A stretch of DNA of 64,000 nt. Origin: Blastocatellia bacterium (GTDB lineage: Bacteria > Acidobacteriota > Blastocatellia > UBA7656). The notes below the pieces were generated by a model, which did no database searches, was not told the DNA's origin, and was given only the letters and a program-made list of their open reading frames with translations. The stretch is from contig DASUNP010000067.1 of NCBI GenBank assembly GCA_036277095.1, positions 67,551 through 131,550 of the forward strand. The letters are read 5' to 3'. The translations under genes and the position numbers were made by a program. This document shows, piece after piece, positions 28,658 to 44,566 of the stretch (position 1 is the first letter of the stretch; every line of letters begins with the position of its first letter).

Positions 28658-28990
28658 GTGGTTTCGCGCATCTACGCAATCCGGGAGGGCATTAAGCAAA
28701 ACGAAATGGTCATCCCTTTTTCCACGCGGATATCTATTCCGCCGGACGTGCTTGTGTCCGCGTTAGCAGGCGAGTCTGTCTTACTGAACCTGAAGAGTGA
28801 GAAGTACTTTGGCCTGGACGAAATGGGGACGCGCATGTGGGGCGCGCTTACTTCGTCCAGATCGATTCAAGAGGCGTATGAGATTCTGCTGGCGGAATAC
28901 GATGTAGAGGCCGAGCGATTGCGCCGCGACCTGAGCGATTTAATAGAGAAGCTCGCCGAGCAGGGACTAATAGATGTTCACCATGAATAA
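28658..28990 (+). CDS. lasso peptide biosynthesis B1 protein (PqqD-family RRE)
   Basis: 110 aa; PqqD-like SVLLNLKSEKYFGLDEMGTRMWGAL ... ; first gene of a B1-B2-C series. GTG start in the track; the ATG at MVIPFST is an alternative. Confidence 0.8.
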   Translation: MVSRIYAIREGIKQNEMVIPFSTRISIPPDVLVSALAGESVLLNLKSEKYFGLDEMGTRMWGALTSSRSIQEAYEILLAEYDVEAERLRRDLSDLIEKLAEQGLIDVHHE

Positions 28991-29447
28991 ATGGCGCAAA
29001 TTCATCGGACTGTCGGCACGAGAGCGATGGCTGTTGTCGCAATCGCTCGTGCTGTTGCCGTTTGCTGCGGCGGCCTTGTCTGTGATGGGGCTCAGGAGAT
29101 ATCAGAGACTGATGGATAGATTCTCGCGCGCCATTAAGCCGGATGTCGCCGGGGACGAGCGAGAGCTTCGCGACCGAGTTCGTAAGACGGCCCGCCTGGT
29201 AGAGGCGGCGAGAAGGTACGGGCCTTACCGTGCGAAGTGCTTGCCCGAATCGCTAACCCTGTGGTGGCTTTTGCGCCGGCAAGGGATCGAAAGCCAGGTC
29301 AAATTCGGCGCGCGCAAAAATGATCGCCGGATGGAAGCACATGCCTGGGTGGAGTTCGAAGGAGTTCCGCTCAACGACACCACAGATGTCATGGAGCGTT
29401 TCAAGCCTTTCGAGCCCGCCGTCCTGCCCGAGGAGTTGAAGACATAA
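28974..29447 (+). CDS. lasso peptide biosynthesis B2 protein (transglutaminase-like leader peptidase)
   Basis: 157 aa; Cys (AKCLPESLTLWWLL), His (EAHAWVEF) and Asp (LND) of the catalytic triad; 17-bp overlap with B1. Confidence 0.85.
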   Translation: MFTMNKWRKFIGLSARERWLLSQSLVLLPFAAAALSVMGLRRYQRLMDRFSRAIKPDVAGDERELRDRVRKTARLVEAARRYGPYRAKCLPESLTLWWLLRRQGIESQVKFGARKNDRRMEAHAWVEFEGVPLNDTTDVMERFKPFEPAVLPEELKT

Positions 29448-31306
29448 TGAGCGGCATTATCGGCATCGTCAATCTGGATGGCAGACCGGTCAGCCGGGAA
29501 TTGTTACGCCGGATGACAGACTTCATGGCCTATCGCGGCCCGGACGCGCAACAGATTTGGAGCGCGGGGCACATCGGATTCGGCCACGCGATGCTGCGCA
29601 CGACCAGAGAGTCAATCAATGAGCGCCAGCCTCTGAGCCTGGATAGAGAAGTTTGGATTACTGCGGACGCGCGAATCGATGGCCGGAACGAGCTGATCGG
29701 CAAATTAGAGTCTAAAGTCGCAGCCGACCTCGCAGGTGTTACGGATGTCGAGCTAATTCTTCACGCCTACAACGCCTGGGGCGAAGGATGTCTGGAACAT
29801 CTGATAGGCGATTTCGCCTTTGCGATATGGGATGGGCGGAAGCGGCGATTGTTTTGCGCTCGCGACCATTTCGGGGTGAAGCCTTTTTACTATGCGCACG
29901 TAGATAATAGTTTGATATTCAGCAACACGCTCAATTGCGTGCGATTGCACCCTGCGGTTTCGGATGAATTAAACGAGCGAGCCATCGGCGATTTCCTGCT
30001 CTTTGGTCTTAATCAAGAATTCAATACAACGACATTTGCTGACATCAAGCGTCTGCCCCCTGCCCACTACTTGCTATTGTTGGCTGGACGAAAGCAGGCA
30101 CGTCGTTACTGGACCTTACCTACGGAGGAACAAATCCGGTACAGGCGCGATGACGAATATGTTGAGCATTTCAAATATCTATTGCGAGAAGCGGTTGGTG
30201 ATAGGCTTCGCGCTAAGAAGATCGCCGTTAGTATGAGCGGTGGGCTCGATTCCACATCAGTGGCGGCAATTGCTAAAGAAGTATCATCTGAGAAACTCGA
30301 TCTGCAAGCCTTCACTATGATTTATGACAGGTTGATACCTGATCAAGAGCGGTACTATTCAGGATTAGCAGCGGAAGGGCTTGGCATCCCGATTCACTAC
30401 CTTGTATTGGACGACTATAAGTTGTATGAGCGATGGGGTTGTCCAGAACATCGTTTTCCTGAGCCGATGCATTTCCCACTGTCAGCATTCGTTTCAGATC
30501 ATCTAATGCGAATCTCATCGCACAGCCGAATAGTTCTGAGTGGCGATGGCGGTGACCCGGCACTATATTTTTCGCAGGCGTATTTTGCTCAACAGCTAAA
30601 GAGGTTTCGATTTTGGCCTGTAGCTTCGTTTATAGCGCGATACGTGCGAACCTATCGGCGGTTTCCAAAACTCGGTTTCCGCACAACGCTGAAGCGCTGG
30701 GCAGGGACTTACTTGGAGTGGAAACATCCTTATCCAATTTGGGTCGAACAGGTTTTTGCGGACCGCTACAACCTGCAAGCGAGGCTGGAATGGGTGAGCA
30801 AAGTATCAGGACCGATTCATCCGACTCGCCCGGAAGCCTATAATTTCCTCACTATGATTGATTGGCCGAACACTTTTGAGTGCGCAGACCCGGGGGCGAC
30901 ATCTATTCCGGTCGAATATCGTTATCCATTTTTTGATCTCCGTTTAGTAAGCTACTTATTGGCAATCCCTCCCTTACCCTGGTGTGCGCACAAGGAAATA
31001 GTTCGCAGGGCGATAAAAGGGTGGTTGCCGGACCCGGTGCGGCTCCGGGCAAAAACGGCCCTGGCCGGAGATCCTTACACTGAACTTATAAAGCAACCCG
31101 ATTCAGACTGTATAGATCGGTTCTCTCCGATGGCCGAATTAACCAGATATATCGATGTAAATGCCATCCCACAGATTGCTCAAGAAAAGGATCCATATAA
31201 GTTATGGTTGAATACTCGTCCAGTTAGTTTAAACTACTGGCTTCGGGATTATAGATCAGTGGGAATTGCCGCAAACAAGGAGAGTTGCTATGAAATCGCA
31301 AGATAA
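29447..31306 (+). CDS. lasso peptide isopeptide-bond-forming cyclase (asparagine-synthetase-like, C protein)
   Basis: 619 aa; AsnB-like N-domain (MSGIIGIV...) and PP-loop SMSGGLDSTSVAAIA; TAATG overlap with B2. Confidence 0.85.
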   Translation: MSGIIGIVNLDGRPVSRELLRRMTDFMAYRGPDAQQIWSAGHIGFGHAMLRTTRESINERQPLSLDREVWITADARIDGRNELIGKLESKVAADLAGVTDVELILHAYNAWGEGCLEHLIGDFAFAIWDGRKRRLFCARDHFGVKPFYYAHVDNSLIFSNTLNCVRLHPAVSDELNERAIGDFLLFGLNQEFNTTTFADIKRLPPAHYLLLLAGRKQARRYWTLPTEEQIRYRRDDEYVEHFKYLLREAVGDRLRAKKIAVSMSGGLDSTSVAAIAKEVSSEKLDLQAFTMIYDRLIPDQERYYSGLAAEGLGIPIHYLVLDDYKLYERWGCPEHRFPEPMHFPLSAFVSDHLMRISSHSRIVLSGDGGDPALYFSQAYFAQQLKRFRFWPVASFIARYVRTYRRFPKLGFRTTLKRWAGTYLEWKHPYPIWVEQVFADRYNLQARLEWVSKVSGPIHPTRPEAYNFLTMIDWPNTFECADPGATSIPVEYRYPFFDLRLVSYLLAIPPLPWCAHKEIVRRAIKGWLPDPVRLRAKTALAGDPYTELIKQPDSDCIDRFSPMAELTRYIDVNAIPQIAQEKDPYKLWLNTRPVSLNYWLRDYRSVGIAANKESCYEIAR

Positions 31307-31421
31307 AACAACTGCGAAGAAAGATTATAATACCCCCAAGCTGTTCATCTATGGAAATATTTCTCAGCTCACACAGAATATAACCGACATGGGGATGAAT
31401 GATAACCCGACTATGAAGACT
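31290..31421 (+). CDS. lasso peptide precursor (A peptide), 43 aa. It is absent from the ORF track (under 60 aa).
   Basis: MKSQDKTTAKKDYNTPKLFIYGNISQLTQNITDMGMNDNPTMKT. The leader fits the lasso consensus Y-x2-P-x-L-x3-G-x5-T-x exactly (Y13..T28-Q29). An AAGGAG RBS lies 8 nt upstream. The gene overlaps the C gene's 3' end by 17 bp. Predicted core NITDMGMNDNPTMKT, with Asp9 as ring acceptor. Confidence 0.7.
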
Positions 31422-31483
31422 TAGCAGTTCGTTGCTCATCACAGATAGCATCTGAAGCTGCTCAATGTCTATTCGTTAAGATC

Positions 31484-32509
31484 ATGTATTTGGCCTATTC
31501 CCTTTACGGCTTGTGCCTGCAAACTAATCTACCTCTTCCTGGCTTAATTCCCCGACCCTCTGCCTCGAAAATAGATGCTCATGTGTGGCTACAATTTATA
31601 CCAGATGCTTTGCTTGGTAAGAGTGAGACACAGGCAAAGCTTGTGTATGCCAGCCAAAATCAGGATGAACTTGGAGAGCCTGTGCTGAAAGCCTGGGAGC
31701 TAATGGACGGGAGCTTTTTCCGGCTGCGTTACAGCGATGGGACGGAGTTCGTTATCGACCGCGAAGGTGCTCAGATATGGTGCACTTGGCCGGATAATTT
31801 AACGATTGAGGACACAACCGTTTATCTTCTTGGTCCAATATTCGGATTTGTACTACGTCTTCGCGGAACGCTCTGCTTGCATGCAAGCGCTATCGCCGTA
31901 GGAGAATATGCAATCGCAATTGTAGGTCCCGCCGGGACTGGAAAATCTACAACCGCCGCAGCGCTTGCGAAGTCAGGATTTCCAGTATTGACAGATGATG
32001 TATTAGCGCTTACCGATATGGATGGCATATTTATGGCTCAACCCGCCTATCCGCACCTGCGCTTATGGCCGGCATCAGTGAATATCTTATATGGTAAACC
32101 GGACGCCCTGCCGAGATTGGTGCCGGGGGATTCATTATGGGATAAACGCTACCTGAATCTCACCGAGAATGATTATATGTTTCAACGCCATCCGCTCCCT
32201 CTCGCGTCAATATACCTGTTAAGCGAACGCACTGAAGATTCAGCAGCTCCATTTATCGAATCAATGTCTGCAAGCGCCGGCTTGATGACTCTTGTTACGA
32301 ATACTTACGCGAACCATCTTCTGAATACTTCGAGGCGCGCCCAAGAATTTGGCTTACTGAGCCGCATCGCATCCAGCCTGCCGGTGCGACGAGTAATACC
32401 TCATGCCAGCCCGTTCTTTCTGTCAAAACTCTGTGAAGTGATCATCAATGATTTTCATCAACAGGTTGAATCGAATAGAATGAGCACGGCGGAAGAAGCG
32501 CAACTCTGA
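31484..32509 (+). CDS. HPr-kinase/phosphorylase-like kinase (lasso precursor kinase homologue)
   Basis: 341 aa; P-loop GPAGTGKSTTAAALA followed by the LTDD motif typical of the HprK C-domain; this family is known in phosphorylated lasso clusters (paeninodin type). Confidence 0.7.
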   Translation: MYLAYSLYGLCLQTNLPLPGLIPRPSASKIDAHVWLQFIPDALLGKSETQAKLVYASQNQDELGEPVLKAWELMDGSFFRLRYSDGTEFVIDREGAQIWCTWPDNLTIEDTTVYLLGPIFGFVLRLRGTLCLHASAIAVGEYAIAIVGPAGTGKSTTAAALAKSGFPVLTDDVLALTDMDGIFMAQPAYPHLRLWPASVNILYGKPDALPRLVPGDSLWDKRYLNLTENDYMFQRHPLPLASIYLLSERTEDSAAPFIESMSASAGLMTLVTNTYANHLLNTSRRAQEFGLLSRIASSLPVRRVIPHASPFFLSKLCEVIINDFHQQVESNRMSTAEEAQL

Positions 32510-32569
32510 ATAAGTAGTGCCTGAAATACGGCGCTGTGATTCTTCAGCAGAGGAAAGCTTTTTGTTGTA

Positions 32570-33193
32570 GTGAGACCAAAGATGCCGGACTCTGATTTTT
32601 TCACTCGCTTCGGATTCTTTGCGGTCAAAGGTTTTCTTGACACGCGATTATGCGCAAGATTTCGATCCGAGATGCTTTCAACTGCACTCTCCCCCACAAC
32701 GGTCGTAGACGCCTACACATCTCAAGACATGCTGAAAGAGAAGGTCCGCAAAAGTTTGCATGCGGAAGTCTCTCAATCATCCACATTGCTTGTAAAAGAG
32801 CGTTTGATGGCTCTAAGGGGAAAGCTGGAGAATCATTTTGAGTTGTCGTTCGACAGTTGCGAGAAGCCACAGTTCCTGGTTTACAAAGAAGGAGGCTACT
32901 TTCAACCACACAGGGATGGGGAAGACGAAGCCGGCAAGCCTGAATATATTAAGAGCCGCCAGATATCTATAGTTGTATTCTTGAACCGAGAGTCTGACAG
33001 GCCCGCGCCCAATGCATACTGCGGCGGGGCGCTGACGTTCTACGGGTTGATAGATGATCCTAAGTGGAAAAGGTATGGCTTTCAATTGAAGGGCGAAACG
33101 GGGATGCTGGTTGCCTTCAGGGCGGGGGTCCTTCATGAAGTCACGACCGTTACACACGGAACACGTTGCTCGATTGTTAGCTGGTTCTTCTGA
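32570..33193 (+). CDS. 2OG-Fe(II) oxygenase superfamily protein
   Basis: 207 aa; HxD (FQPHRDGED) ... distal His (VLHEVTTVTHG) facial triad; P4H/PhyH-like. Confidence 0.65.
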   Translation: MRPKMPDSDFFTRFGFFAVKGFLDTRLCARFRSEMLSTALSPTTVVDAYTSQDMLKEKVRKSLHAEVSQSSTLLVKERLMALRGKLENHFELSFDSCEKPQFLVYKEGGYFQPHRDGEDEAGKPEYIKSRQISIVVFLNRESDRPAPNAYCGGALTFYGLIDDPKWKRYGFQLKGETGMLVAFRAGVLHEVTTVTHGTRCSIVSWFF

Positions 33194-33223
33194 TTTCAAC
33201 CTATAGTAAACTGAGAAGTCATA

Positions 33224-34393
33224 ATGTATAGCATCACCAGCTATGGCAAGATGATTGCCGACCATGTACGCACAGAGGCTTATGCGCATGCTTTGCGTCG
33301 GGCGATAAAGCCCGACTCGGTCGTCCTCGATATCGGAACGGGGATAGGCATCTTTGCGATGCTGGCCTGTCAATTCGGCGCGCGACGAGTCTATGCCATT
33401 GAGCCGGATGATGCCGTCCAGGTTGCGCGAACGATCGCCGCAGATAACGGCTTTGCCAACCGCATTGAGTTTATTCAAGAACTCTCTTCTCGTATCACAT
33501 TATCTGAGCGAGTCGATCTGATCGTCTCTGACTTGCGGGGCGTGCTGCCTTTGTTTCGTCATCACATTCCGTCAATCATCGATGCTCGAAAGCGCTTCCT
33601 TGCTCCAGACGGCATACTGATACCACAGCAAGACACTTTATGGGCGGCAGTGTCGGAAGCCCCGGATCTGTATGAACGCTATTCGACGCTCTGGAGCGAT
33701 AATGCTTATGGGCTTGACCTCGGCGCAGCCCGGCGATTAGCGGTTAACACCTGGCAGAAAGGCCGAGTCGCCTCCGATCAGCTTTTAACGCCTCCTCAAC
33801 AATGGGCTACGCTCGATTATTATTCTATAGAGAGCGCCAACATCAGCGCTGAAATGATCTTTACCGCGATGCGCGCGGGGACTGCTCACGGCTTGAGCCT
33901 GTGGTTCGACGGCCTGCTCGCTGAAGGAGTGAGTTTTTCGAACGCTCCCGGCCAGCCCGAATTAATCTATGGCAGCGCCTTCTTCCCATTCTCTTCTCCC
34001 GTAACGCTGGCCGTCGGCGATAGAGTCTCCGTTAAGCTTTCGGCAGACCTCGTAGTCGATGATTACGTCTGGCGGTGGAATACTCAGGTGGCGGGTCAGG
34101 GCGATGAGATCAAAGCCGATTTCAAACAGTCTACTTTCTTCGGCGCGCCGCTGTCTCCGAATCAACTGCGCAAACGAGAGAGCAGCTATGTCCCTGCGCT
34201 TGATAAAGAGGGGCAGATCGACCGGCTCATCCTTTCTCTCATGAACGGGCAGAATTCTCTAAGCGATATTGCTCACACAGTTGCAACTGATTTCCCGGAC
34301 CGCTTCAAAAGCTGGCAGGATGCGCTGAACCGCGCAGGCGAGCTCTCTGTTAAATACAGCAACCGGTCCGGCCTCTCTCATGCTTCGCAATGA
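33224..34393 (+). CDS. PRMT-fold (protein arginine N-methyltransferase-like) class I methyltransferase
   Basis: 389 aa. MIADHVRTEAYAHAL and VLDIGTGIGIFAMLACQFGARRVYAIE align with PRMT motif I/post-I. The double-E loop is replaced (SDLRGV instead of SEWMGY). Confidence 0.65.
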   Translation: MYSITSYGKMIADHVRTEAYAHALRRAIKPDSVVLDIGTGIGIFAMLACQFGARRVYAIEPDDAVQVARTIAADNGFANRIEFIQELSSRITLSERVDLIVSDLRGVLPLFRHHIPSIIDARKRFLAPDGILIPQQDTLWAAVSEAPDLYERYSTLWSDNAYGLDLGAARRLAVNTWQKGRVASDQLLTPPQQWATLDYYSIESANISAEMIFTAMRAGTAHGLSLWFDGLLAEGVSFSNAPGQPELIYGSAFFPFSSPVTLAVGDRVSVKLSADLVVDDYVWRWNTQVAGQGDEIKADFKQSTFFGAPLSPNQLRKRESSYVPALDKEGQIDRLILSLMNGQNSLSDIAHTVATDFPDRFKSWQDALNRAGELSVKYSNRSGLSHASQ

Positions 34394-35589
34394 AACCGTC
34401 AAGTCGCGCAGTCTCCGGCATGATCTCTGAACACGAGTTGCTCGTATGCTGCGCCCGGACATATCTGGATTCTAAGAGCGCCGCGCGCGTTGCCGCGCTC
34501 GTTCAACAGCGAATAGACTGGGATTACCTGGTCCGAGCGGCTACACATCACAGCCTGCTTCCGCTCCTGCACTCACATCTGAGCGCAATCTGCCCCGATG
34601 ACATTCCCGGCGCCGCCTCCAACCGGCTCAAAGAGCATTCTCAGAATAACAGCAGAAACAGTCTTCTCCTCACAGGCGAGCTGATTAAGCTTCAACGGCT
34701 TTTTCAGTCTCAAGATATTCCGATGGTCCCGTTTAAGGGGCCGATCCTGGCCGCCTGTTTCTATGGCGATGTAGGGCTCAGGCAGTTTAGCGACCTCGAC
34801 CTGTTGGTCCGCAAACAGGACGTGTTCAAAGCCAGGGATATTCTCATCTCTGCTCAATACCTTCCGCGCTACCGGTTGGGCGCGACGCAACGGGCGGCGA
34901 TGGTCGAGCAAAAGTGCGAGGAGCCCTTTGACCGGGACGATAACGCTGCGACGGTCGATCTACACTGGGCAGTTATACCAACGCGATTCTCTTTCGCGCC
35001 CGATATCGCCTCGATATGGCAGGGGCTTGAGCGAGTCTCGCTCAGCGGCTGCGAGTTTCTGACGGTCGCGCCCGAAGATCTGATTATGCTGATCTGCATA
35101 CATGGCGCAAAGCATGCCTGGGAGCGATTGGGCTGGATATGCGACCTGGCGGAGTTGATTCGCGCCCGCAGAAGTTTGGATTGGAACTCAGTCATCGAGA
35201 CGGGAAGACGAAGCGGCGGCCAAAGAATTCTTTCTCTCGGTCTTTTCCTGGCGAGCGATCTGCTGGATGCGCCGCTCCCGCCGGGAGTTTTCGAAAGCGT
35301 GCAATCTGATAGACAGGTCCGGTCGCTTGCGGCGAAAGTTTATTCGAATCTCTCGCGCAGGATTGATAGACAGATAAGTGTCTTTGAAAGGGACCTGTTT
35401 TACCTCCAATCCATGAATCGCGTAAAGGATCGCGCGCATTTACTGTCGGACCATATAAAGCCGACGCCTCTCGAATGGCAGATGGTGCCGCTGCCCCCGT
35501 ATCTCTCCTTCTTTTATTATCCGCTGCGCCCTATCAGGATAATCGAGAAACACTGGCAGAGTTTAACTAAACGCATGTTATCGAAATGA
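34390..35589 (+). CDS. nucleotidyltransferase-family protein (PF14907-like 'uncharacterised NTP transferase')
   Basis: 399 aa; FSDLDLLV motif; ATGA overlap with the methyltransferase; this family co-occurs with kinases in lasso clusters. Confidence 0.6.
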   Translation: MKPSSRAVSGMISEHELLVCCARTYLDSKSAARVAALVQQRIDWDYLVRAATHHSLLPLLHSHLSAICPDDIPGAASNRLKEHSQNNSRNSLLLTGELIKLQRLFQSQDIPMVPFKGPILAACFYGDVGLRQFSDLDLLVRKQDVFKARDILISAQYLPRYRLGATQRAAMVEQKCEEPFDRDDNAATVDLHWAVIPTRFSFAPDIASIWQGLERVSLSGCEFLTVAPEDLIMLICIHGAKHAWERLGWICDLAELIRARRSLDWNSVIETGRRSGGQRILSLGLFLASDLLDAPLPPGVFESVQSDRQVRSLAAKVYSNLSRRIDRQISVFERDLFYLQSMNRVKDRAHLLSDHIKPTPLEWQMVPLPPYLSFFYYPLRPIRIIEKHWQSLTKRMLSK

Positions 35590-35668
35590 GACTGGTCAAA
35601 CCTACTCGTTGAATGTACATTGGTGATCCGAAAGCACGCGCCATGCGCCCTTAAATTAATTCGCAGAC

Positions 35669-37495
35669 ATGACGACTACCACGGCATCAATTAACAGAAT
35701 TTTTATCGCCACTTTGCTCGGCGAAATGTCGTGGAGAGTGGTCCTGGTCCTTACGCTCATGCTCTCGCTCGGCCTTATCGAAGGCATCGGGCTGATACTT
35801 CTAATCCCTCTGCTTGGGCTCACGGGCATAGATGTTCAACAAGGCGCGGTCGGCGCAATCGATAGCTTCGTCGCGTCAGCTTTCAATGTCGCGGGCCTGC
35901 GCCCGACTCTCATGTCTGTGCTGGCCGTTTATGTCGCAATCACAATTGCTCACTCGCTCTTACAACGCTGGCAAACGGTGAGCAGCGCTTCGCTTGAAAA
36001 CGAATTTGTAGATCGTCTCAGGCAGCGGCTCTATAAATCGATCACGAATGCGAACTGGCTATTTTTCTCCAGGTCGAAAGCTTCCCATTTCACTCACGCG
36101 CTCACTTCGGAGCTTGACCGTGTAGATATCGCAACCTATAGCCTGCTTGCCATAGTCGTCAACTGCGTCGTCGCCTCAGTCTACATAATCCTGGCTTTGC
36201 GTTTGTCCGTGCCGATGACGGTGCTGGTCTTCGCTTGCGGAGCGGCGCTCCTGCTCCTGCTTAAAGGCAAGATGCGAAAGGCGCGTTTGAGCGGGGAAGC
36301 TCTCTCTGATGCGACAGGGGAGATGCACTCTTCTTCGCTGGAGCACTTCGGCGGCATAAAAGTGGTGAAAGCCTATAACGCCGAACGGCGCAATATAAAG
36401 ATCTTTTCGGAGTTGACCCGTCGCGTCACGCGCATCTACGACGCCTACACGCGCGACCATGCGAATATGAAACTCTGGTTCGACGTGGGCGCTGTGCTTG
36501 TCCTGGCGGTGATTCTTTACGTCTCCATAGGGGTGGCTTCTATGCCCGCGGCGGGCGTGCTCGTCTTGATATTCCTGTTCGCGCGCATCATGCCAAAGCT
36601 CTCAACCATACAGCAGAACTATCAGCGTTACGTTCACGCGCTGCCTGCGTTCGCTGCCGTGATGGATGTAGAATCGCGCTGCCTGGCGGCATCCGACCCG
36701 GCGCCTACAGATACAGAGCCTGTGCAGTTCCGGCAGTCCGTGAGGCTCGACCGCGTAGATTTCGAATATGAGCCTGGCGGGTTTCGATTACAGGCGCTTG
36801 ACCTGACAATCGCATTCGGCGATATGACGGCTATAGTCGGCCAATCGGGCGCGGGCAAAAGCACTATAGCAGACCTTCTCCTGGGCCTGGTCGCACCCGG
36901 GCGAGGCCGTGTCTTGATCGATGACGCCGTTTTAGAAGCAAAGCTCATTAAAGGCTGGCGCGACCAGATCGGCTACGTTGCGCAGGACACTTTCTTATTT
37001 CACGACACGGTCAGGGCCAACCTGCTATGGGCGCGGCCCGAGGCAACCGAGCAAGAGTTGTGGGATGCGTTGAGGCTCGCGGCGGCAGATGAGTTCGTTA
37101 AGGATTTGCCTCAAAGACTTGAAACAGTCCTGGGCGATCGCGGCGTGAGGCTTTCGGGCGGCGAGAGACAACGAATAGCATTGGCGCGCGCGCTGCTGCG
37201 CAAGCCGCAGCTCTTGATACTTGACGAGGCCACGAGCGCGCTCGATTCAGAAAATGAAAAGCGCATACTCTCTGCCATAGAAGAGTTGCACGGCCGTCTC
37301 ACTATACTCGTCATTGCCCACAGGCTCTCTACAATCAGAACAGCGGATCACATTTATCTTATCGAACGGGGCAGATTGATCGAACACGGAGATTGGTCTT
37401 CGCTCATCACCAGGGAAGGCGGCAGGTTTCAAGCCTTCTTTAAGGCGCAGAACCTTGAAGTTGTCCCTGACACACAGAAGGTTTCTTATGATTGA
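35669..37495 (+). CDS. ABC transporter, fused permease/ATPase (lasso exporter D)
   Basis: 608 aa; 6 TM N-domain; Walker A GQSGAGKST; signature LSGGERQRIALARALL; Walker B LILDEATSALD. Confidence 0.85.
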   Translation: MTTTTASINRIFIATLLGEMSWRVVLVLTLMLSLGLIEGIGLILLIPLLGLTGIDVQQGAVGAIDSFVASAFNVAGLRPTLMSVLAVYVAITIAHSLLQRWQTVSSASLENEFVDRLRQRLYKSITNANWLFFSRSKASHFTHALTSELDRVDIATYSLLAIVVNCVVASVYIILALRLSVPMTVLVFACGAALLLLLKGKMRKARLSGEALSDATGEMHSSSLEHFGGIKVVKAYNAERRNIKIFSELTRRVTRIYDAYTRDHANMKLWFDVGAVLVLAVILYVSIGVASMPAAGVLVLIFLFARIMPKLSTIQQNYQRYVHALPAFAAVMDVESRCLAASDPAPTDTEPVQFRQSVRLDRVDFEYEPGGFRLQALDLTIAFGDMTAIVGQSGAGKSTIADLLLGLVAPGRGRVLIDDAVLEAKLIKGWRDQIGYVAQDTFLFHDTVRANLLWARPEATEQELWDALRLAAADEFVKDLPQRLETVLGDRGVRLSGGERQRIALARALLRKPQLLILDEATSALDSENEKRILSAIEELHGRLTILVIAHRLSTIRTADHIYLIERGRLIEHGDWSSLITREGGRFQAFFKAQNLEVVPDTQKVSYD

Positions 37496-37742
37496 CACGT
37501 GTAGCACTCGAAGATAGAATAGCGCCGCGTCTTTAAAGGCGCCGGTCGTCACGTTGATCTCATGACAGTGACTTCATCGCATGGCCGAATCATAAAACAA
37601 CTCCTCTCATCACTCCATCCCCAGTAACGAAATCAAATACCAGCACGACGATGCCGGTCTGTCATCAGACGGATTCGACGGCCCGTCCACCATCAGCCGC
37701 AGCCTGTACAGACCCCAGAACGAAATTGCAGGAAGGAATTCC

Positions 37743-38225
37743 ATGAGAAGAGAACCGTTCATGACGTTACCCCTGGCGAGAAGAGACGGGTTGTTAGTTC
37801 GGGAGATGAATGAAGAGATGCTGGTCTATGACCTGCAACGACATAAAGCGCACTGCTTGAACCGCCCCGCCGCTCTGGTATGGGGCCACTGCGACGGAAA
37901 GGCTAGCGTGGCTGAAGTGGCGCGGCTCGTCGGAGAGAAGATAGGAACACCGCTTGACGAAGAGACGATCCGCCATGCCTTAACTCAACTCGATCGGGCG
38001 GCGCTGTTAGAGAGGCGGATAACGCAAGCCGGTAACACTAGAAGATTATCCCGCAGACAGGCAGTGCGCAGATTGAGTGCGGCTGCGGTGGCCGCCGTGC
38101 CGATTGTGACAACCATCGTTGCGCCGCAGGCGGCAGAAGCCGCGACCTGTACACGCGCCGGGGAGACGTGCACAGGGCTGCCCTGCTGCGGCAGCGCTAC
38201 GAGGTGCTTTGTCGGCAGGTGCTAA
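37743..38225 (+). CDS. PqqD-like (RRE) domain protein with a hydrophobic/Tat-like segment and a C-terminal 6-Cys tail
   Basis: 160 aa. LVYDLQRHKAHCLNRPAALVWGHCDGKASVAEVARLV matches the PqqD fold. Then SRRQAVRRLSAAAVAAVPIVTTIVAPQAAEAA, followed by TCTRAGETCTGLPCCGSATRCFVGRC (C-x6-C-x4-CC-x5-C-x4-C). Confidence 0.5.
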   Translation: MRREPFMTLPLARRDGLLVREMNEEMLVYDLQRHKAHCLNRPAALVWGHCDGKASVAEVARLVGEKIGTPLDEETIRHALTQLDRAALLERRITQAGNTRRLSRRQAVRRLSAAAVAAVPIVTTIVAPQAAEAATCTRAGETCTGLPCCGSATRCFVGRC

Positions 38226-38234
38226 CTCTATTCA

Positions 38235-39323
38235 ATGAATAACAGCCTTGCACAGTCTCGGGGAAGTCAGATCGCCGCCGTGCTCGCAGGCTCATGGCGC
38301 GACCATCCCCCGCCCTTGAAAATATCGGGCGGCCAATTGGCCGAGATAACTTCGGCATTGCTCGCGACGGGGACCGCGCCCCTTTGTTGGAGGCGTCTTC
38401 TTCATTCTAAAACGGAAGCGCGCGCAGCCTTAGAGTTAAAAGCGGCTTACTACTTTCACACGATTCGGGCCGCCTACCACGAATATGAGGTCGAGCAGGT
38501 CTTCCGGCTGCTGCGTGCAGCGGGCTTAGAGCCCGTGCTGATGAAAGGGTGGGCCGTCGCACGACTTTATCCCGAATCGGGGCTCAGGCCATACGGAGAT
38601 GTAGACCTTTTCATCAGGCCCCGCGAGCGCCGCAAGGCTGCGGCTGTTTTAGCGAGCAATGAAGGCGTGAAACTTAACGTAGACATCGAGCATGAAGAGT
38701 TTGCCTGTGTGAGCGACCGGGCGGCGGATGATTTATGCGCTCGCTCAAAGCTTGTGACGCTGGGCGAAACGCATGTTCGCATTCTCGGCGACGAAGACCA
38801 CCTGCGTATGCTCTGTCTGCACACGCTCAGACATCACGCATGGCGACCGCTGTGGCTCTGCGACATAGGCGTTGTGGTCGAATCTTTGCCGGAAGGTTTC
38901 GATTGGGAGATCTGTCTTGGCGCAAACAAGAGGGAAGCCAACTGGGTCGCCTGCCTGGTCGAGCTGGCGAGCCAGGTTCTCGGCGTCCAACCGCGCGGTG
39001 ATTTTGTGTCGCGCGCCTCGTCGAAGCTGCCGCGCTGGGTCGGGCCCGCGCTTCTAAGAGACTGGGGCAGGTGGCACGGCCCGGGACCTGCGGAGTTGGC
39101 AGCCACGGCGTTCGTGAAGAATGTCAAAAGCCCCTCTCGAATGATTGGCGAGATCATCTCCAGGTGGGATCGCCCGATCAAGGCTACGGTCGAGATGCGA
39201 GGTCCGTTCAATCAATTTCTAAGACTTCCCTTTCAGATCTCTTACGCTCTTTCGCAGACTCCGAGGATCGCCCGACAGGTCGCGCGCGGTTTCTGCAAAG
39301 GGCGAACAGCGGAGGAGCAATGA
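38235..39323 (+). CDS. nucleotidyltransferase-family protein (second PF14907-like paralogue)
   Basis: 362 aa; YGDVDLFIRP motif; 9 bp after the RRE-Cys ORF; its stop overlaps the next gene as ATGA. Confidence 0.55.
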   Translation: MNNSLAQSRGSQIAAVLAGSWRDHPPPLKISGGQLAEITSALLATGTAPLCWRRLLHSKTEARAALELKAAYYFHTIRAAYHEYEVEQVFRLLRAAGLEPVLMKGWAVARLYPESGLRPYGDVDLFIRPRERRKAAAVLASNEGVKLNVDIEHEEFACVSDRAADDLCARSKLVTLGETHVRILGDEDHLRMLCLHTLRHHAWRPLWLCDIGVVVESLPEGFDWEICLGANKREANWVACLVELASQVLGVQPRGDFVSRASSKLPRWVGPALLRDWGRWHGPGPAELAATAFVKNVKSPSRMIGEIISRWDRPIKATVEMRGPFNQFLRLPFQISYALSQTPRIARQVARGFCKGRTAEEQ

Positions 39324-42300
39324 ACAATATTATTTCGCGTTCTATTCGACTCTCACTGGTTGCGGCCTTCTTTATGCTGTCTGCGTCTTCGCCCGCCAAG
39401 GCCCAGATCAGTCTTCCAACTGCATCGCCTTACACACAGAGTTTTGACAGCCTCTCGACATCTGCCACGGCCACGCTGCCTGCGGATTGGAGGGTTGATA
39501 AGATAGACGGGCTCGTCAGGACGGTCGGAAGCTTCACGACGGCAGGTACGGTGACCGAGCAGATCGCCGGTAACGGCATGGCTGTCAATGCAGCTAACGG
39601 CATTTACAACTATGGCGCAGGCGTGGCGAATACAGCGACTGACAGGGCAGCAGGCTGGATCTCATCCGGCACTGCTACGAGAAGCGGAAATCTGTACGCC
39701 CGGTTTATCAACAGCACTGGCGCGAGCGTTTCAAGCCTGAGCATCTCTTACGACATTGAAAAGTACCGTAATGGATCTAACACGGCGGGTTTCAGAATCG
39801 AGATGTTTTATTCATTTGACGGGGCGACCTGGACTGCGGCCCCGGCTAACTTTCTAACAAGCTTTCCAGCCGACGCAAACAACAACGGATTTGCAAGCGC
39901 CCCCGGAGTGATTGTTTCACTCACCAACCAGGTTCTCCAGGTCACAATACCAAACGGCAGCGACTTTTACCTGGCCTGGAACTACTGCGTCACCTCCGGG
40001 ACGACAACGACGAATGCGCAGGCGCTGGGCATCGATAACTTTTCCGTCATAGTCAACACCGTCACAGCGGTCGAGCTTCTTTCATTTACTGCTTCTCAAT
40101 CGGGCGATGGAGTATTGCTCGAATGGGCGACCGGGCATGAAGTCGATAATCTCGGCTTTAACATTTATCGAGAGGACGGGGGCAAGCGCGCTCGCATCAC
40201 CCCTCGGATCGTTGCGGGGTCGGCCTTGCTCGCCGGGTCCGGCAATGCTTTGACGGCCGGGCGGCAGTACAGATGGTTTGACCCCGCCCCCGGCATCGAA
40301 GGCAATATCGATTACTGGCTCGAAGACATAGACCTTAACGGCAAGGTTACGCTGCACGGCCCGATCACGCCCGCGCCCGGCGGTAAGCTATCTCTCAGGT
40401 CCGACTCGCTTCCGCTTTCGAGCGTACAGACTGATACGAGAGCGTGGCAGCGACAGGTAGTTGTTTCGAATGTCGGTAAGAATTCTCATCCGCATTCGGC
40501 TCAAGAATCTTTGAACAGTCTCCAGACCCAGTGGGAAATTGCGGCGGGCCCTGCCGTGAAGATCACGATCAAGAAAGACGGGTGGTACCGCGTGACCCAG
40601 CCCGCCCTCGTAGCCGCCGGCCTGGACCCGTCGCGCGACCCGCGCCTGCTAAGGCTGTTCGCGGACGCCGAGGAAGTGCCGATCATCGTCAGAGGCGGGC
40701 AGAAGGGGAGGCTTGAGCCGACAGACGTAATAGAATTCTACGGCGCGACGCTCGACACGCCCTCCACAGACAGGCGCGTCTACTGGCTCACGTCCGGCAA
40801 TCAGCCGGGCCGCAGAATAACCATTCTGGCGGGAGAAGCCGTCAAACCGACGGGTGGGGGCAGCTTCCCCTACACAGTCGAGAGAAAGGAGCGCAGCGTC
40901 TACTTTGCGGCGTTGATAAACGGGGAGGCGGAGAACTTCTTCGGCCCAGTAGTCACAGCCGATCCGGTCGCTCAGGAATTCCGGATCGAGAACCTCGACA
41001 AGGGATCGACCGACAAAGCCAGGCTCGAAGTGGCCTTGCAAGGCGTAACCGATGTCACAAATGTTGCGCCCGACCACAGCGTGAAAGTGAAGCTCAACGG
41101 GGTAGAGATAGGCTCTGTCGCCTTCGACGGGCAGGCGCGCAAGATTACCGAGATAATCTTCTCTAATCAATTGCTGCTCGAAGGATCAAACGACATCACG
41201 CTTGTCGCCGAAGGCGGCGAGATGGACGTGAGTCTGATAGATCACATCAGGCTCACCTACGCGCACAGATTCCGCGCGGACGGGGACGCGCTCGAACTGA
41301 GCGCCATCGGCGGAGAGCCGATAACCGTAACGGGCTTCAGCCAGCCCGCAATCCGGGTATTCGACATCACTGACCCGAACGACGTGCAAGAGATGACTCC
41401 AATAGTCGAAGCGCAAGGATCTGAATTCGCCATCACCTTCAGGGCGAATGCTTCGGGCGAGAGGCGGCTCCTCGCCCTGGTCGACCATCTTGCGCAAGCG
41501 CCTTTCACAGTCACGGCCAACCGGCCTTCGACTTTGAACCGCGCGGGCAACGGGGCGAATTTTATCATCATCACGCACGGCCTATTCGCCGCCGCGATGG
41601 AGCCGCTAAAGCGATTGCGGCAGGGCCAGGGCTTGAGCGCGACTATCGTCGACGTGGAAGATGTCTATGACGAGTTCAGCCACGGGGCGCACTCTCCGCA
41701 GGCAGTAAAAGATTTCCTGGCGCGGGCCGCGACCGTTTGGAAGAAGCGGCCCGGCTGGGTGATGTTTGCCGGGGACGCCAGCTTCGACCCGAGAGACTAT
41801 CTCAATCTGGGTGAAAGCGACTTCGTGCCGACGAAGCTCATAGACACGTCCGGGCTTGAGACGGCTTCGGACGACTGGTTGGCAGACTTCGACTCTGACG
41901 GATTGCCCGAGATGGCTGTGGGCCGCCTGCCCGTGCGCACTGTCGGCGAGGCCGGAGCGGTAATAGAAAAGATCATGGGCTACGCTCAGGCGGGCAGGGC
42001 CGAAGGCGCGTTGATGGTTGCCGACCGCAACGACGGGTATGATTTCGAGGCCGCAAGCCTGAGCGTGAAAGCGCGACTTCCTGCCGACGTAATCGCGCAG
42101 GAGGTCTTTCGGGGGAGGGTAGACGACGCGACGGCCAGGCAGCAGATCATTGACGCGGCCAGGCGAGGTCCTAAGATTGTCAACTACCTCGGGCACGGGT
42201 CGGCTGGGACATGGAGAGGGGACCTGTTGACATCGTCGGATGCCGCCGCTCTTCAGAATTCAGAGGGGCCATCGTTATTCGTGATGATGACGTGCCTGAA

Positions 42301-42565
42301 CGGATTCTTCCACGACCCTTACGGAGACAGCCTCGCCGAATCGCTGATGAAGTGCGAGCGTGGTGGAGCCGTGGCGGCATGGGCTTCGTCGTCGCTGACA
42401 ACACCGGGCGGGCAGTCGGCAATGAATCAGCGGTTTTATCAGCTCTTGTTCGCGGGCAACCTGACGCTGGGCGAGGCGGCAATGAGGGCAAAGCTCGCCG
42501 CGAGTGACACGGACATTCGCCGGACCTGGATACTGTTCGGCGACCCGACATTAAAGATCAAATAA
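39320..42565 (+). CDS. secreted C25-family (gingipain-like, clan CD) cysteine peptidase, large multidomain (start trimmed to the signal peptide Met; the track starts at 39071)
   Basis: Signal peptide MNNIISRSIRLSLVAAFFMLSASSPAKAQ; catalytic His (NYLGHGS) and Cys (MMTCLNGFF); C-terminal ILFGDPTLKIK. Confidence 0.75.
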   Translation: MNNIISRSIRLSLVAAFFMLSASSPAKAQISLPTASPYTQSFDSLSTSATATLPADWRVDKIDGLVRTVGSFTTAGTVTEQIAGNGMAVNAANGIYNYGAGVANTATDRAAGWISSGTATRSGNLYARFINSTGASVSSLSISYDIEKYRNGSNTAGFRIEMFYSFDGATWTAAPANFLTSFPADANNNGFASAPGVIVSLTNQVLQVTIPNGSDFYLAWNYCVTSGTTTTNAQALGIDNFSVIVNTVTAVELLSFTASQSGDGVLLEWATGHEVDNLGFNIYREDGGKRARITPRIVAGSALLAGSGNALTAGRQYRWFDPAPGIEGNIDYWLEDIDLNGKVTLHGPITPAPGGKLSLRSDSLPLSSVQTDTRAWQRQVVVSNVGKNSHPHSAQESLNSLQTQWEIAAGPAVKITIKKDGWYRVTQPALVAAGLDPSRDPRLLRLFADAEEVPIIVRGGQKGRLEPTDVIEFYGATLDTPSTDRRVYWLTSGNQPGRRITILAGEAVKPTGGGSFPYTVERKERSVYFAALINGEAENFFGPVVTADPVAQEFRIENLDKGSTDKARLEVALQGVTDVTNVAPDHSVKVKLNGVEIGSVAFDGQARKITEIIFSNQLLLEGSNDITLVAEGGEMDVSLIDHIRLTYAHRFRADGDALELSAIGGEPITVTGFSQPAIRVFDITDPNDVQEMTPIVEAQGSEFAITFRANASGERRLLALVDHLAQAPFTVTANRPSTLNRAGNGANFIIITHGLFAAAMEPLKRLRQGQGLSATIVDVEDVYDEFSHGAHSPQAVKDFLARAATVWKKRPGWVMFAGDASFDPRDYLNLGESDFVPTKLIDTSGLETASDDWLADFDSDGLPEMAVGRLPVRTVGEAGAVIEKIMGYAQAGRAEGALMVADRNDGYDFEAASLSVKARLPADVIAQEVFRGRVDDATARQQIIDAARRGPKIVNYLGHGSAGTWRGDLLTSSDAAALQNSEGPSLFVMMTCLNGFFHDPYGDSLAESLMKCERGGAVAAWASSSLTTPGGQSAMNQRFYQLLFAGNLTLGEAAMRAKLAASDTDIRRTWILFGDPTLKIK

Positions 42566-42625: not shown

Positions 42626-42877
42626 GGCCCGAACTGAGTCCTTCTCGTAAGAATGTTCTTACTGGCTTTGAATGCTCTGTCTACTTAATTACGTCATGTG
42701 TTATGTAAGAGTTTACCTGCTGCTTCTTGGCAAGGATAGAATTTTATTGCCGATGAATTATCAGAGTGCGATGAGCTTTAACAACGCAGCAGGCCGTCCG
42801 CGAGTATAGCTTATTCACGCCCTGAACACCTTCTGGCTACATGCTGGCCAATGTTACCGCCTAAAAGGAGAATTTCT

Positions 42878-44566
42878 ATGCCAACTAAAAAAGGAACTAC
42901 TAAAAAAGGAGCTTCTAAGAAAGGGGGCTCAAAAAAAGCTCCCTCTGCAAAGAAAGCCAAGACTGAAAAAAAGACCTATAGTGTATCTGGTGAGCACCTT
43001 GTGTCGAGCAAAGTAAAGACTGGTTACATTTCTGGAGAAACGTTTGGATTGAAAGAAGTAGCTTATTCAGCGGTTGATGGTCAGGCCATCTTTGAAGGCG
43101 ATATTGTTCTTGGCAGTGTCGCGGAAATGGACGCTATCAAGAAACAGGTTGAAAACCCTCAACCGGGCGCGGAGGCTGCGGCCATCGTTGTCGGCAGCCA
43201 ATTCCGCTGGCCCGACGGCGTAATGATCTTCCGCATCGATCCCAGTCTCCCAAATCAGCAAAGAGTCACTGATGCAATTCAGCATTGGCAGACAAACAGT
43301 AACGTCAGATTCAGGCAGCGAACTACTGAAACAAACTTTGTGACTTTCACACCGGGCGGAGGATGCAGCTCTCAGGTCGGCATGCGGGGCGGAGAGCAAT
43401 TTATTACACTCGGGGCAGGCTGCACGACCGGTAACACGATTCACGAAATTGGTCACGCTGCAGGGCTTTGGCACGAGCAAAGCCGTGAAGATAGGGACAG
43501 CTTCGTCACTATCAACTTTGCTAACATTCAGCCGGGGCTGGAACACAACTTTAATCAGCACATAACGGATGGCGATGACATTGGGCCTTATGATTACGGC
43601 TCAATTATGCACTATCCCCGCAATGCGTTCGCCATCAATCCAAATGTGGATACCATCACTCCAAAGCCCAATCCCAACGTGGCTATAGGTCAGCGCACAG
43701 GCTTGAGCGCTGGTGATCTTCGAGCAATAAACTCGATCTATCAAAGAAAGGCCATCCTTGGAGAAACCAGCAGTAACGGACCTGCGCTGACAACGAGGAA
43801 CAATCAGCTTCTTCTCAGTTGGACAGGAGTTGGAAATTTGCGCCTCAACTTTATGAGTTCAACTGATGGCCTCAATTACTCTAACAAGGTGACTCTGGGT
43901 GAAGTCTCTCCGGCAGCCCCTGCCCTTGCGGTTTTCCAAAACAGGTTCATAGTTGCCTGGATAGGCGTTGGCAACAACCGGCTTAACATCTTGCAGTCGA
44001 ACAACGGGCTGAGTTGGGGCAATAAAGTAACGCTCGGCGACACGTCACAGTCGTCTCCGGCGCTTGCCGTATTAGGCAACCAGCTTTTCATCGCCTGGCG
44101 TGGCGTCGGCAATAACCGGCTAAACGTAATGCGAAGCTCAAACGGTGTAAACTGGACGGGGAAGGTTACTCTCGGCGATACAACGACATCCGGCCCTGCG
44201 CTGGCAACGCTGGGGAGTCGACTACTGTTAGGATGGCGTGGCGTCGGCAATAACCAGCTAAATGTCATACAAAGCCCTAACGGTACGAACTTCACTGGCA
44301 AGGTTACGCTTGGCGAAACAACTATCTCCAAACCTGGCCTACATGCAAGCGGCGGACGCGCTTTACTCACCTGGCAAGGAGTCGGCAATCGGTTTCTCAA
44401 CGTGCTTGCCAGTAACAACGGGACAGCGTGGACGAGCAAGCAAACCTCATCACAGACTTGTATAGATGGACCGGTGATTTCAAACCTTGGCAACCGTCTC
44501 GTCTGGGGGTGGACTGGAACCGACAACGCTCACCGTCTCAACTCTATGCTTTTCAATGTTGTTTGA
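42878..44566 (+). CDS. astacin (M12A) zinc metalloprotease with a Lys-rich N-terminal tail and C-terminal tandem repeats (start set at the Met after a strong AGGAG RBS; the track gives 42851)
   Basis: HEIGHAAGLWHEQSREDRD zinc site, then the SIMHY Met-turn. N-terminus PTKKGTTKKGASKKGGSKKAPSAKKAKTEKK. Six ~44-aa repeats (W-x-G-V-G-N-x-x-L-N ... G-x-x-W ... K-V-T-L-G) from about 43770. Confidence 0.8.
   Translation: MPTKKGTTKKGASKKGGSKKAPSAKKAKTEKKTYSVSGEHLVSSKVKTGYISGETFGLKEVAYSAVDGQAIFEGDIVLGSVAEMDAIKKQVENPQPGAEAAAIVVGSQFRWPDGVMIFRIDPSLPNQQRVTDAIQHWQTNSNVRFRQRTTETNFVTFTPGGGCSSQVGMRGGEQFITLGAGCTTGNTIHEIGHAAGLWHEQSREDRDSFVTINFANIQPGLEHNFNQHITDGDDIGPYDYGSIMHYPRNAFAINPNVDTITPKPNPNVAIGQRTGLSAGDLRAINSIYQRKAILGETSSNGPALTTRNNQLLLSWTGVGNLRLNFMSSTDGLNYSNKVTLGEVSPAAPALAVFQNRFIVAWIGVGNNRLNILQSNNGLSWGNKVTLGDTSQSSPALAVLGNQLFIAWRGVGNNRLNVMRSSNGVNWTGKVTLGDTTTSGPALATLGSRLLLGWRGVGNNQLNVIQSPNGTNFTGKVTLGETTISKPGLHASGGRALLTWQGVGNRFLNVLASNNGTAWTSKQTSSQTCIDGPVISNLGNRLVWGWTGTDNAHRLNSMLFNVV

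Follow-up and report, generated by a model that had tools for sequence, protein, structure and literature searches.

What is made from an open reading frame (ORF) whose product joins, in a single chain of 160 residues, a peptide-recognition domain, a twin-arginine segment and a Cys-rich tail? This question is raised by ORF 37743-38225, on the forward strand of a 64,000-nucleotide stretch of a Blastocatellia bacterium genome (contig DASUNP010000067.1, positions 67,551 to 131,550), referred to here as the window. The ORF had been singled out in an initial annotation of the window, an observation confirmed by our analysis. We consider, with a probability of about 0.55, that its product is the precursor of a knottin-like mini-protein, secreted and rich in disulfides, and has a RiPP-recognition element of its own (RRE; RiPP, a peptide synthesized ribosomally and modified post-translationally) in cis. 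What is directly established is how the domains of this target protein are arranged, how its residues are conserved and which genes it is linked to; every rival explanation weighed below clashes with two or more of the computed observations. The ORF and its parts are as follows, in window coordinates.

37743..38225, forward strand: target ORF (160 residues), a putative pre-pro-peptide composed of an RRE domain, a twin-arginine signal/leader and a six-Cys tail
37770..38027, forward strand: RRE/PqqD-fold domain, residues 10-95 (AlphaFold2 pLDDT >90)
38049..38069, forward strand: twin-arginine motif S103-R-R-Q-A-V-R109 (family consensus S-R-R-x-[LVAM]-[LVIM]-[RK])
38073..38126, forward strand: weakly hydrophobic h-region/leader strand L111-P128, in which the invariant P120 and P128 bracket V-T-T-I-V
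38127..38144, forward strand: c-region Q129-A134, with the AxA motif A131-E-A133 as the signal-peptidase site predicted from the sequence and column counts
38145..38222, forward strand: Cys-rich tail T135-C160, the predicted mature disulfide-rich peptide (C-x6-C-x4-CC-x5-C-x4-C)

Domain anatomy of the target protein

The N-terminal ~95 residues had been described as PqqD-like, and the AlphaFold2 model bears this out: residues 10-95 adopt a winged-helix fold of three β-strands followed by three α-helices. Structural similarity search against the PDB revealed that the lasso B1 proteins TfuB1 (6jx3) and TbiB1 (5v1u) are the best matches, with identities of 17-22%. The protein scores 22.9 bits against PF05402 (gathering threshold 23.4 bits), and most homologues carry a precomputed match to this family. 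The best family-level hidden Markov model matches are ScmD, found in 54 of 61 members, and PqqD_rel_X (TIGR04353), found in 34 of 61, all far below the curated cutoffs; the target itself reaches 15.3 bits (E 0.028) against PqqD_rel_X, compared to a cutoff of 35 bits. The domain has an invariant β3 motif K-A-H-C-L-N at residues 35-40 and a W..xCDG stretch at residues 47-52. The former, together with the strand between P120 and P128, is one of the two most conserved stretches in the family. Two Cys residues of these motifs are invariant, namely C38 in β3 (K-A-H-C38-L-N; 37854-37856) and C50 (W-x-x-C50-D-G; 37890-37892). They have no counterpart in canonical RREs, and the lasso B1 protein encoded in the same window has YFGLD there; metal binding, redox or covalent chemistry are possible roles.

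The next segment had been noticed as a Tat (twin-arginine translocation)-like internal signal, and this description holds across the family. Among 107 members, the Arg pair is invariant (107/107), residue 103 is Ser or Thr in 105, and hydrophobic residues at +2/+3 are followed by Arg or Lys at +4, so that the pattern of S-R-R, two hydrophobic residues and R/K is that of the Tat consensus. The neighbouring basic residues swap between Lys and Arg, whereas the Arg pair does not. Models of Tat signals match 15-16 of 61 members, the figure for TIGR01409 being 15 of 61 at E<=0.05. The motif leads via an Ala-rich stretch to the near-invariant L-P120-x-V-T/E-S/T-I-V-A-P128, of which the family consensus between the two prolines is x-V-T-S-I-V-A. 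An AxA-type c-region then directly precedes S/T135-C136, and this Ala-rich AxA stretch is kept right before the first Cys.

The hydrophobicity of the segment is also signal-like. Its summed Hessa ΔG is about +6.3 kcal/mol over 19 residues (family median +4.7), compared to 4.7-7.5 for the Escherichia coli Tat signals TorA, SufI and DmsA, 4.35 for the Sec signal of the neighbouring C25 peptidase and -0.64 for a true transmembrane helix. It thus resembles cleavable signals and is unlike a transmembrane helix. In the AlphaFold2 model, residues 122-126 form a five-residue β-strand as assigned by DSSP (pLDDT ~81) and no transmembrane helix; a 41%-identical Gemmatimonadota member (P0101) has the corresponding strand at residues 123-127 (pLDDT 85), and the linker before the strand scores 63-68 in the two runs.

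These properties bear on a doubtful alternative, the membrane-anchored RRE considered in the initial annotation. It would be an uncleaved bitopic protein, N-in/C-out, with a signal-anchor and an external Cys-knot sensor or receptor, in which the RRE relays to the nucleotidyltransferase (NTase) or to a kinase-like protein in anti-sigma style. The topology signals are compatible with this arrangement, FecR-domain and TPR genes share the operon in about half of the loci, and surface-exposed receptors can be hypervariable too. However, the segment is too weakly hydrophobic for a stable transmembrane helix, with its core modelled as a short β-strand; two prolines within it are invariant, a Glu is often present, and the Ala-rich AxA stretch just before the first Cys is retained. 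Moreover, no sigma factor was found among the conserved neighbours, and the target matched no anti-sigma or other membrane-protein family (zf-HC2/RskA-type) in Pfam or NCBIfam.

In the tail, six Cys residues follow the C-C-CC-C-C order (C136-x6-C143-x4-C148-C149-x5-C155-x4-C160, or C6C4CC5C4C), which is exactly the inhibitor cystine knot (ICK)-type spacing reported at the outset. Absence of the six Cys from homologues had been named beforehand as a ground against this description; they are conserved. Among 208 unique tails, 116 have six Cys, 71 have eight, 8 have ten and 5 have twelve, the number being even in 201 of the 206 that contain Cys, and the dominant framework is C6C5CC3C4-7C. Since an even number of Cys follows an export signal, the tails are more likely to hold disulfides than metal sites.

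A profile of 64 six-Cys tails matched 45 PDB sequences at E<=1 (best E 1.2e-4), of which 44 are of ICK/knottin type, including Aca toxin 1, omega-atracotoxin-Hv1a, bidentatide, spinach trypsin inhibitor and conotoxins, and the last is a β-defensin. Matches to solved ICK peptides have E values of 1e-4 to 1e-2. A control profile with the non-Cys residues shuffled gave seven PDB matches with a best E of 0.05; therefore, the ICK likeness appears to go somewhat beyond that of the Cys spacing alone. As judged from sequence profiles, the knottin similarity appears modest and partly framework-driven, and Pfam toxin/knottin families match 1-23 of the 64 tails.

The tail of one homologue, P0017 (ANCLPSGQPCTTSAQCCSGLCNNNACA, residues 134-161), scores 24.2 against the Pfam Omega-toxin family (gathering threshold 22) and has C-[IL]-P-S-G-Q-P-C...CCS..C in common with the spider toxin omega-atracotoxin-Hv1a, a likeness that is due either to a striking case of convergence or to the constraints of a common framework.

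The same tails make it very improbable that the Cys-rich region is a cytoplasmic Zn/Fe module, either a zinc ribbon or metallothionein-like, of a soluble regulator. The dense Cys of the tail and the two invariant Cys of the N-domain would suit such a module, but the spacing and the number of Cys (6-12) vary, most tails have neither CxxC pairs nor His ligands, the tail profile matches disulfide-knot peptides and not zinc fingers, and a signal-like segment with an invariant Arg pair precedes the tail.

This architecture is covered by none of the curated models of Pfam, NCBIfam or PADLOC, and a PDB sequence search with the whole protein returned nothing useful. The identical NCBI entry, from a Blastocatellia metagenome-assembled genome, is named only 'PqqD family protein'. 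The architecture had not been recognised in the initial annotation either, and our literature searches (PF14907, HprK-related kinase, PqqD with twin-arginine and cysteine-rich, bacterial knottins) found no description of it. The single parts, namely the RRE, the Tat-type signal, the ICK-type framework and the PF14907/HprK-like tailoring genes, are already known; what appears to be new is their union in one polypeptide.

The homologous family and its neighbouring genes

A search for homologues with the same fusion found 237 loci in GTDB species representatives, so the target is not an orphan. Among 80 loci listed, most belong to Blastocatellia/Pyrinomonadaceae and other Acidobacteriota, in addition to a few Methylomirabilota and single genomes of Gemmatimonadota, Binatia and Nitrospinota. 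In a representative library, 5,989 clusters at 50% identity were matched at E<=1e-10, a number that falls to 2,101 when the cutoff is E<=1e-30. Throughout the family, conservation of the N-domain and signal segment contrasts with a hypervariable tail: where two N-domains are 94% identical, the tails are only 49% identical (40% outside the Cys), and tandem paralogues, two or three per locus in several loci, differ in their tails. Orthologous tails have dN/dS values of 0.02-0.5 and are therefore under purifying selection rather than junk; for the same reason, positive selection in the form of a plain dN/dS>1 is not supported. As in RiPP precursors, a conserved leader is combined with a core that is hypervariable, and one locus can encode multiple paralogous precursors. 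Split versions, in which a discrete RRE stands beside a stand-alone signal plus Cys peptide, were not found in 88 loci, where all motif matches without the N-domain were out-of-frame noise; within this sample, the fusion of RRE, signal and Cys tail is obligate.

In locus L002, two paralogues (342-854 and 2383-2874) flank the NTase gene, and tandem cases occur likewise in L010, L061 and L079. The N-parts of the L002 pair are near-identical in DNA (dS 0.15), with a leader dN of 0 and a saturated tail, a pattern that suggests cassette-like tail exchange, or gene conversion/homogenization of the 5' part.

The features that accompany the target, in the window and in related operons, are listed below.

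37492..37520, forward strand: sigma-70-like promoter match TTGACA-17-TAGAAT (11/12), a consensus match only
38235..39323, forward strand: NTP_transf_5 (PF14907) nucleotidyltransferase NT2, 362 residues, the conserved partner (Pfam 98.2 bits)
39320..42565, forward strand: secreted C25 (PorU-like) cysteine peptidase (Pfam Peptidase_C25, 250 bits)
Related loci, in operon with the target: TPR genes, 17 of 36 loci
Related loci, in operon with the target: FecR-domain gene, 17 of 36 loci
Related loci, in operon with the target: Wzy_C gene, 15 of 36 loci

The initial annotation had suggested NTase, C25 peptidase and radical SAM genes as neighbours to look for. The first two proved to be conserved, whereas no radical SAM gene was seen. 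A PF14907 NTase lies directly downstream of the target on the same strand in 45 of 64 loci (~70% of those with enough flank), which is suggestive of a co-encoded modification of the target; in the window, the gap between the target stop and the NTase start is 9 bp (38226-38234). The invariant residues of the NTase are G105, D122-x-D124, D150 and H153, and a PDB sequence search with it returned nothing useful. A C25 peptidase is found near the target in 19 of 36 loci with full flanks, including the window, where its ATG at 39320 overlaps the NTase stop (ATGA). It scores 214 bits against the PorU model NF033707 (cutoff 420) and starts with the Sec-type signal MNNIISRSIRLSLVAAFFMLSASSPAKA/Q. In addition, a P-loop protein of ~275 residues that matches HprK_rel_A (TIGR04352) with 56-63 bits (cutoff 200) is encoded directly upstream of the target in 30 of 67 loci, but no such gene adjoins the target in the window. 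The recurrent operon, seen in about half of the loci, reads WzyC-TPR-FecR-TPR-(HprKA)-target-NTase-(unknown 437 aa)-C25.

The ATG of the target ORF is preceded by AGGAAGGA, a ribosome-binding-like stretch. The promoter-like site at 37492-37520 lies ~220 bp 5' of this start codon, at the end of an ABC exporter gene that belongs to a lasso-peptide cluster, and this consensus match suggests that the target-NTase-C25 unit may be transcribed apart from the lasso operon.

The 437-residue protein (U437) is conserved, has no Pfam or NCBIfam family and occurs in 12 of 80 loci, either between NTase and C25 or adjoining family members (for example L012 7713-9029, L032 7735-9066 and L076 7762-9087). In the Gemmatimonadota loci L005 (8001-10543) and L007 (7051-9730), a trio of HprK_rel_A-like, target and NTase genes is inserted at the rpoC-rpsL junction, a housekeeping site that is highly conserved; the trio of L005 is broken by insertion sequence elements, and the NTase of L007 is split in two ORFs. 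None of the target, NTase, C25, HprK-like or U437 proteins matched an anti-phage defence family in PADLOC.

The neighbourhood also bears on the unlikely alternative of a purely cytoplasmic RiPP precursor, in which the segment is only an RRE-bound leader, the core is modified in the cytoplasm by thioether/metal chemistry or by NTase nucleotidylation/glycosylation, and the product leaves via a dedicated exporter such as the adjacent ABC protein. The ABC exporter gene is indeed directly upstream of the target in the window, AlphaFold2 gives a strand, apparently docked, rather than a helix for the segment, Glu occurs in the h-region of 31 of 107 members, and NTP_transf_5 and HprK-like proteins act as tailoring enzymes in lasso clusters (PMC6993621). 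Nevertheless, ABC genes are found in only 5 of 88 loci, and that of the window belongs to the lasso operon. No radical SAM, cyclodehydratase, lanthionine or MNIO (multinuclear non-haem iron-dependent oxidative) enzyme is conserved among the neighbour clusters of the target, and the co-encoded C25 peptidase is secreted. An Arg pair that stays invariant while nearby basic residues interchange, and an even Cys count in 98% of tails within an ICK-like framework, are likewise hard to reconcile with this alternative.

A putative maturation route and its precedents

For the secreted-precursor reading, the steps that we infer are, with falling confidence, a disulfide-bonded extracytoplasmic tail, cleavage at AxA, twin-arginine export, RRE binding with NTase recruitment, and a role of C25. 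In order of events, the RRE domain would bind the strand P120-P128 of its own chain in the canonical leader-on-β3 mode, apparently as AlphaFold2 predicts; the strand is placed on β3 in cis because only the strands of the RRE sheet are long enough to pair with it. The bound RRE would hold the signal/leader and offer a docking platform to the NTase, in addition to the kinase-like protein where present, which may modify the pro-peptide or license its export. The twin-arginine signal would then drive post-translational export, most likely via Tat, with the RRE domain staying inside. The internal position is topologically permitted, since what lies N-terminal to a Tat signal remains cytoplasmic. 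In actinobacterial Rieske proteins, a functional analogy only, the twin-arginine motif acts from inside the polypeptide. Cleavage of the chain at AxA would be the work of signal peptidase or of the secreted C25 peptidase, which may process the exported product or be regulated by it. The freed peptide of 26-27 residues (~2.7 kDa) would be oxidised outside the cytoplasm; with three disulfides, its predicted monoisotopic mass is 2717.1 or 2646.1 Da. That the tails are hypervariable, that they differ between tandem paralogues and that orthologues are under purifying selection suggests that the peptide binds, or acts as an effector on, targets that vary, be it in competition, protease inhibition or a surface function.

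The initial annotation had also offered a RiPP-type precursor with its own recognition domain and a secreted cystine-knot peptide with a long pro-region. Both options are supported and probably describe the same thing; together with the anatomy they stand, whereas the membrane-anchor option is disfavoured. We tentatively extend this to a more specific proposal, in which the RRE on its own twin-arginine signal might serve as a cis 'export gate' that is freed only once the pro-peptide has been modified or checked by the NTase, with or without the HprK-like kinase, and in which the family might be a large, overlooked bacterial knottin-like class. That such RiPP-like or secreted-peptide precursors make up a distinct class of Tat-routed, self-chaperoned bacterial knottins is a similarly speculative assignment.

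Several points weigh against the secreted-precursor reading. The signal is internal, ~100 residues from the N-terminus, which is atypical for a Tat signal; its TIGR01409 score is marginally under the cutoff (16.4 versus 16.7 bits), and the Glu residues noted above fall within the would-be h-region. Disulfide-dependent folds are normally Sec/DsbA clients, not Tat clients. The window's own tail (C6C4CC5C4C) has no Pfam knottin match, and the cystine-knot connectivity (I-IV, II-V, III-VI) is not deducible from a sequence. The cis docking of the leader on β3 is a feature of the model in which the partner strand is deduced from DSSP only. The NTase is missing from ~30% of the loci and the HprK-like gene from the window, so that neither is strictly required. 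Export, cleavage and modification are all inferred.

Comparison with known systems showed partial precedents for most elements. The lasso B1 proteins (TfuB1, TbiB1) and PqqD are discrete RREs, whereas in the target the RRE shares one covalent chain with its presumed ligand and cargo, has the invariant Cys-bearing KAHCLN in β3, and has no B2 protease, cyclase or PqqE partner. In the HPr-rel-A system (TIGR04352 and TIGR04353) and the SynChlorMet cassette (ScmC/ScmD), as in the target family, a PqqD-like protein is paired with an HprK-like P-loop protein, and a PF14907 nucleotidyltransferase also belongs to the HPr-rel-A system. However, their NCBIfam models describe a 74-position PqqD domain without a Tat signal or a Cys-rich tail, and the window lacks the adjacent HprK_rel_A-like gene. 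TorD, DmsD and NapD, the redox enzyme maturation proteins, bind twin-arginine signal peptides and delay export until maturation is done. Their resemblance to the target is a functional analogy only, since the folds are unrelated, the putative chaperone of the target acts in cis and there is no cofactor-containing passenger.

The ICK peptides, such as omega-atracotoxin/hexatoxin-Hv1a, O-superfamily conotoxins and plant knottins, have the C-C-CC-C-C framework in common with the target tails, and both ICK toxin precursors and the target family combine a conserved N-part with a hypervariable, Cys-framed C-part. Compared to the toxin precursors, which have an endoplasmic reticulum signal and a propeptide, the target family is bacterial, has a pro-region made of a folded RRE and a Tat-like signal, and commonly includes 8-12-Cys variants; homology of its tails to animal or plant knottins is unproven.

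Among RiPP precursors that contain Cys, bufferins (DUF2282, BUF_6/12Cys precursors) set a precedent for the use of a general-secretion signal peptide and not of a dedicated exporter; an RRE-containing partner helps their recognition, and the end products are small folded periplasmic proteins (PMC11626156). They differ from the target, with its internal twin-arginine signal and fused RRE, in that their Sec signal is N-terminal, the RRE lies on a separate DUF2063 protein and thiooxazoles are made by an MNIO (DUF692) enzyme; neither MNIO nor DUF2063 was found among the conserved neighbour clusters of the target. In the pseudomycoidin system, the HprK-family kinase PsmK and the 'uncharacterised NTP transferase' PsmN act on a ribosomal lasso peptide, and PsmN, in which a DxD motif is essential, is needed for the addition of hexoses to phospho-Ser (PMC6993621). 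This motif is retained by NT2 as D122/D124. PsmN acts on a C-terminal phospho-Ser, whereas the target tails end in Cys.

RRE-based genome mining leaves oversized PqqD-only proteins unexplained: in a survey, 21% of the PF05402 proteins were longer than a discrete RRE and had no other annotation (PMC12710340), and the target family accounts for part of this group. The family provides a defined candidate substrate for PF14907 nucleotidyltransferases and HprK_rel_A-like P-loop proteins, two enzyme families without an assigned biochemical function, and a natural test case for the coupling of RRE domains with Tat signals. Knottins, a scaffold prized by designers of drugs and pesticides, are classically seen as eukaryotic. 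If the secreted-precursor reading is right, soil Acidobacteriota, Gemmatimonadota and their relatives would encode thousands of different small disulfide-stabilised peptides by a new route, with recognition domain, export signal and cargo in one chain. If the 'export gate' proposal holds as well, no RiPP-like natural products routed through Tat would have preceded these, and no other prokaryotic family of cystine-knot peptides would have shown conotoxin-style hypervariability before.

The adjacent lasso cluster and flanking regions

Upstream of the target, a complete lasso-peptide gene cluster occupies 28658-37495 on the forward strand. Its core genes are as follows.

28658-28990, forward strand: lasso B1 (PqqD, 63.6 bits)
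28974-29447, forward strand: lasso B2 (Transglut_core3)
29447-31306, forward strand: lasso cyclase (NF033535)
ORF 31266-31424, forward strand: candidate precursor (lasso_cyano NF033528, 28.6 bits, below the cutoff of 33), in which the leader/core boundary is not obvious

The cluster further contains genes for an HprK-like protein, a 2-oxoglutarate-Fe oxygenase, a PRMT-like methyltransferase, a PF14907 NTase and the ABC exporter. This set of tailoring genes predicts a heavily tailored lasso peptide. The presence of a PF14907 gene is reminiscent of the pseudomycoidin system, which also has an NTase; the lasso-cluster NTase and NT2 are 18% identical.

It is hardly credible that the target serves this pathway as an accessory RRE, in the role of a second B1, or as another precursor, even though it starts 247 bp downstream of the lasso ABC gene, the synteny is kept in the close relative L008, and lasso B1 proteins are its best structural matches. 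The cluster already has a canonical B1, B2, cyclase and precursor; the target has no detectable sequence similarity to the local B1; and a promoter-like site precedes the target gene. Moreover, L008 is the only one of 88 related loci examined in which lasso genes lie beside a family member, the others including the rpoC/rpsL site in Gemmatimonadota. Because the cluster has its own B1, B2 and cyclase, its B1 is unlike the target, and lasso genes accompany the family only in L008, the target gene is independent of the adjacent cluster, and a second lasso B1 was rejected as its identity.

Directly downstream of the C25 gene, an astacin (M12A) metallopeptidase is encoded at 42851-44566 on the forward strand (Pfam 169.6 bits), with the motif HEIGHAAGLWHE. 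Its N-terminus is rich in Lys, and towards the C-terminus there are about six repeats (GVGNNRLNV..S.NG..W..KVTLG) without a Pfam match. On the reverse strand, positions 1-28000 of the window contain a long run of glycosyltransferase and polysaccharide-export genes, including a Wzz-GNVR tyrosine kinase at 25526-27940 and a weak Wzy_C protein at 18055-19449. Relatives of the target (L006, L028 and others) likewise adjoin Wzy_C/TPR/Wzz genes, and a link of the target family to the cell envelope or to exopolysaccharide is possible.

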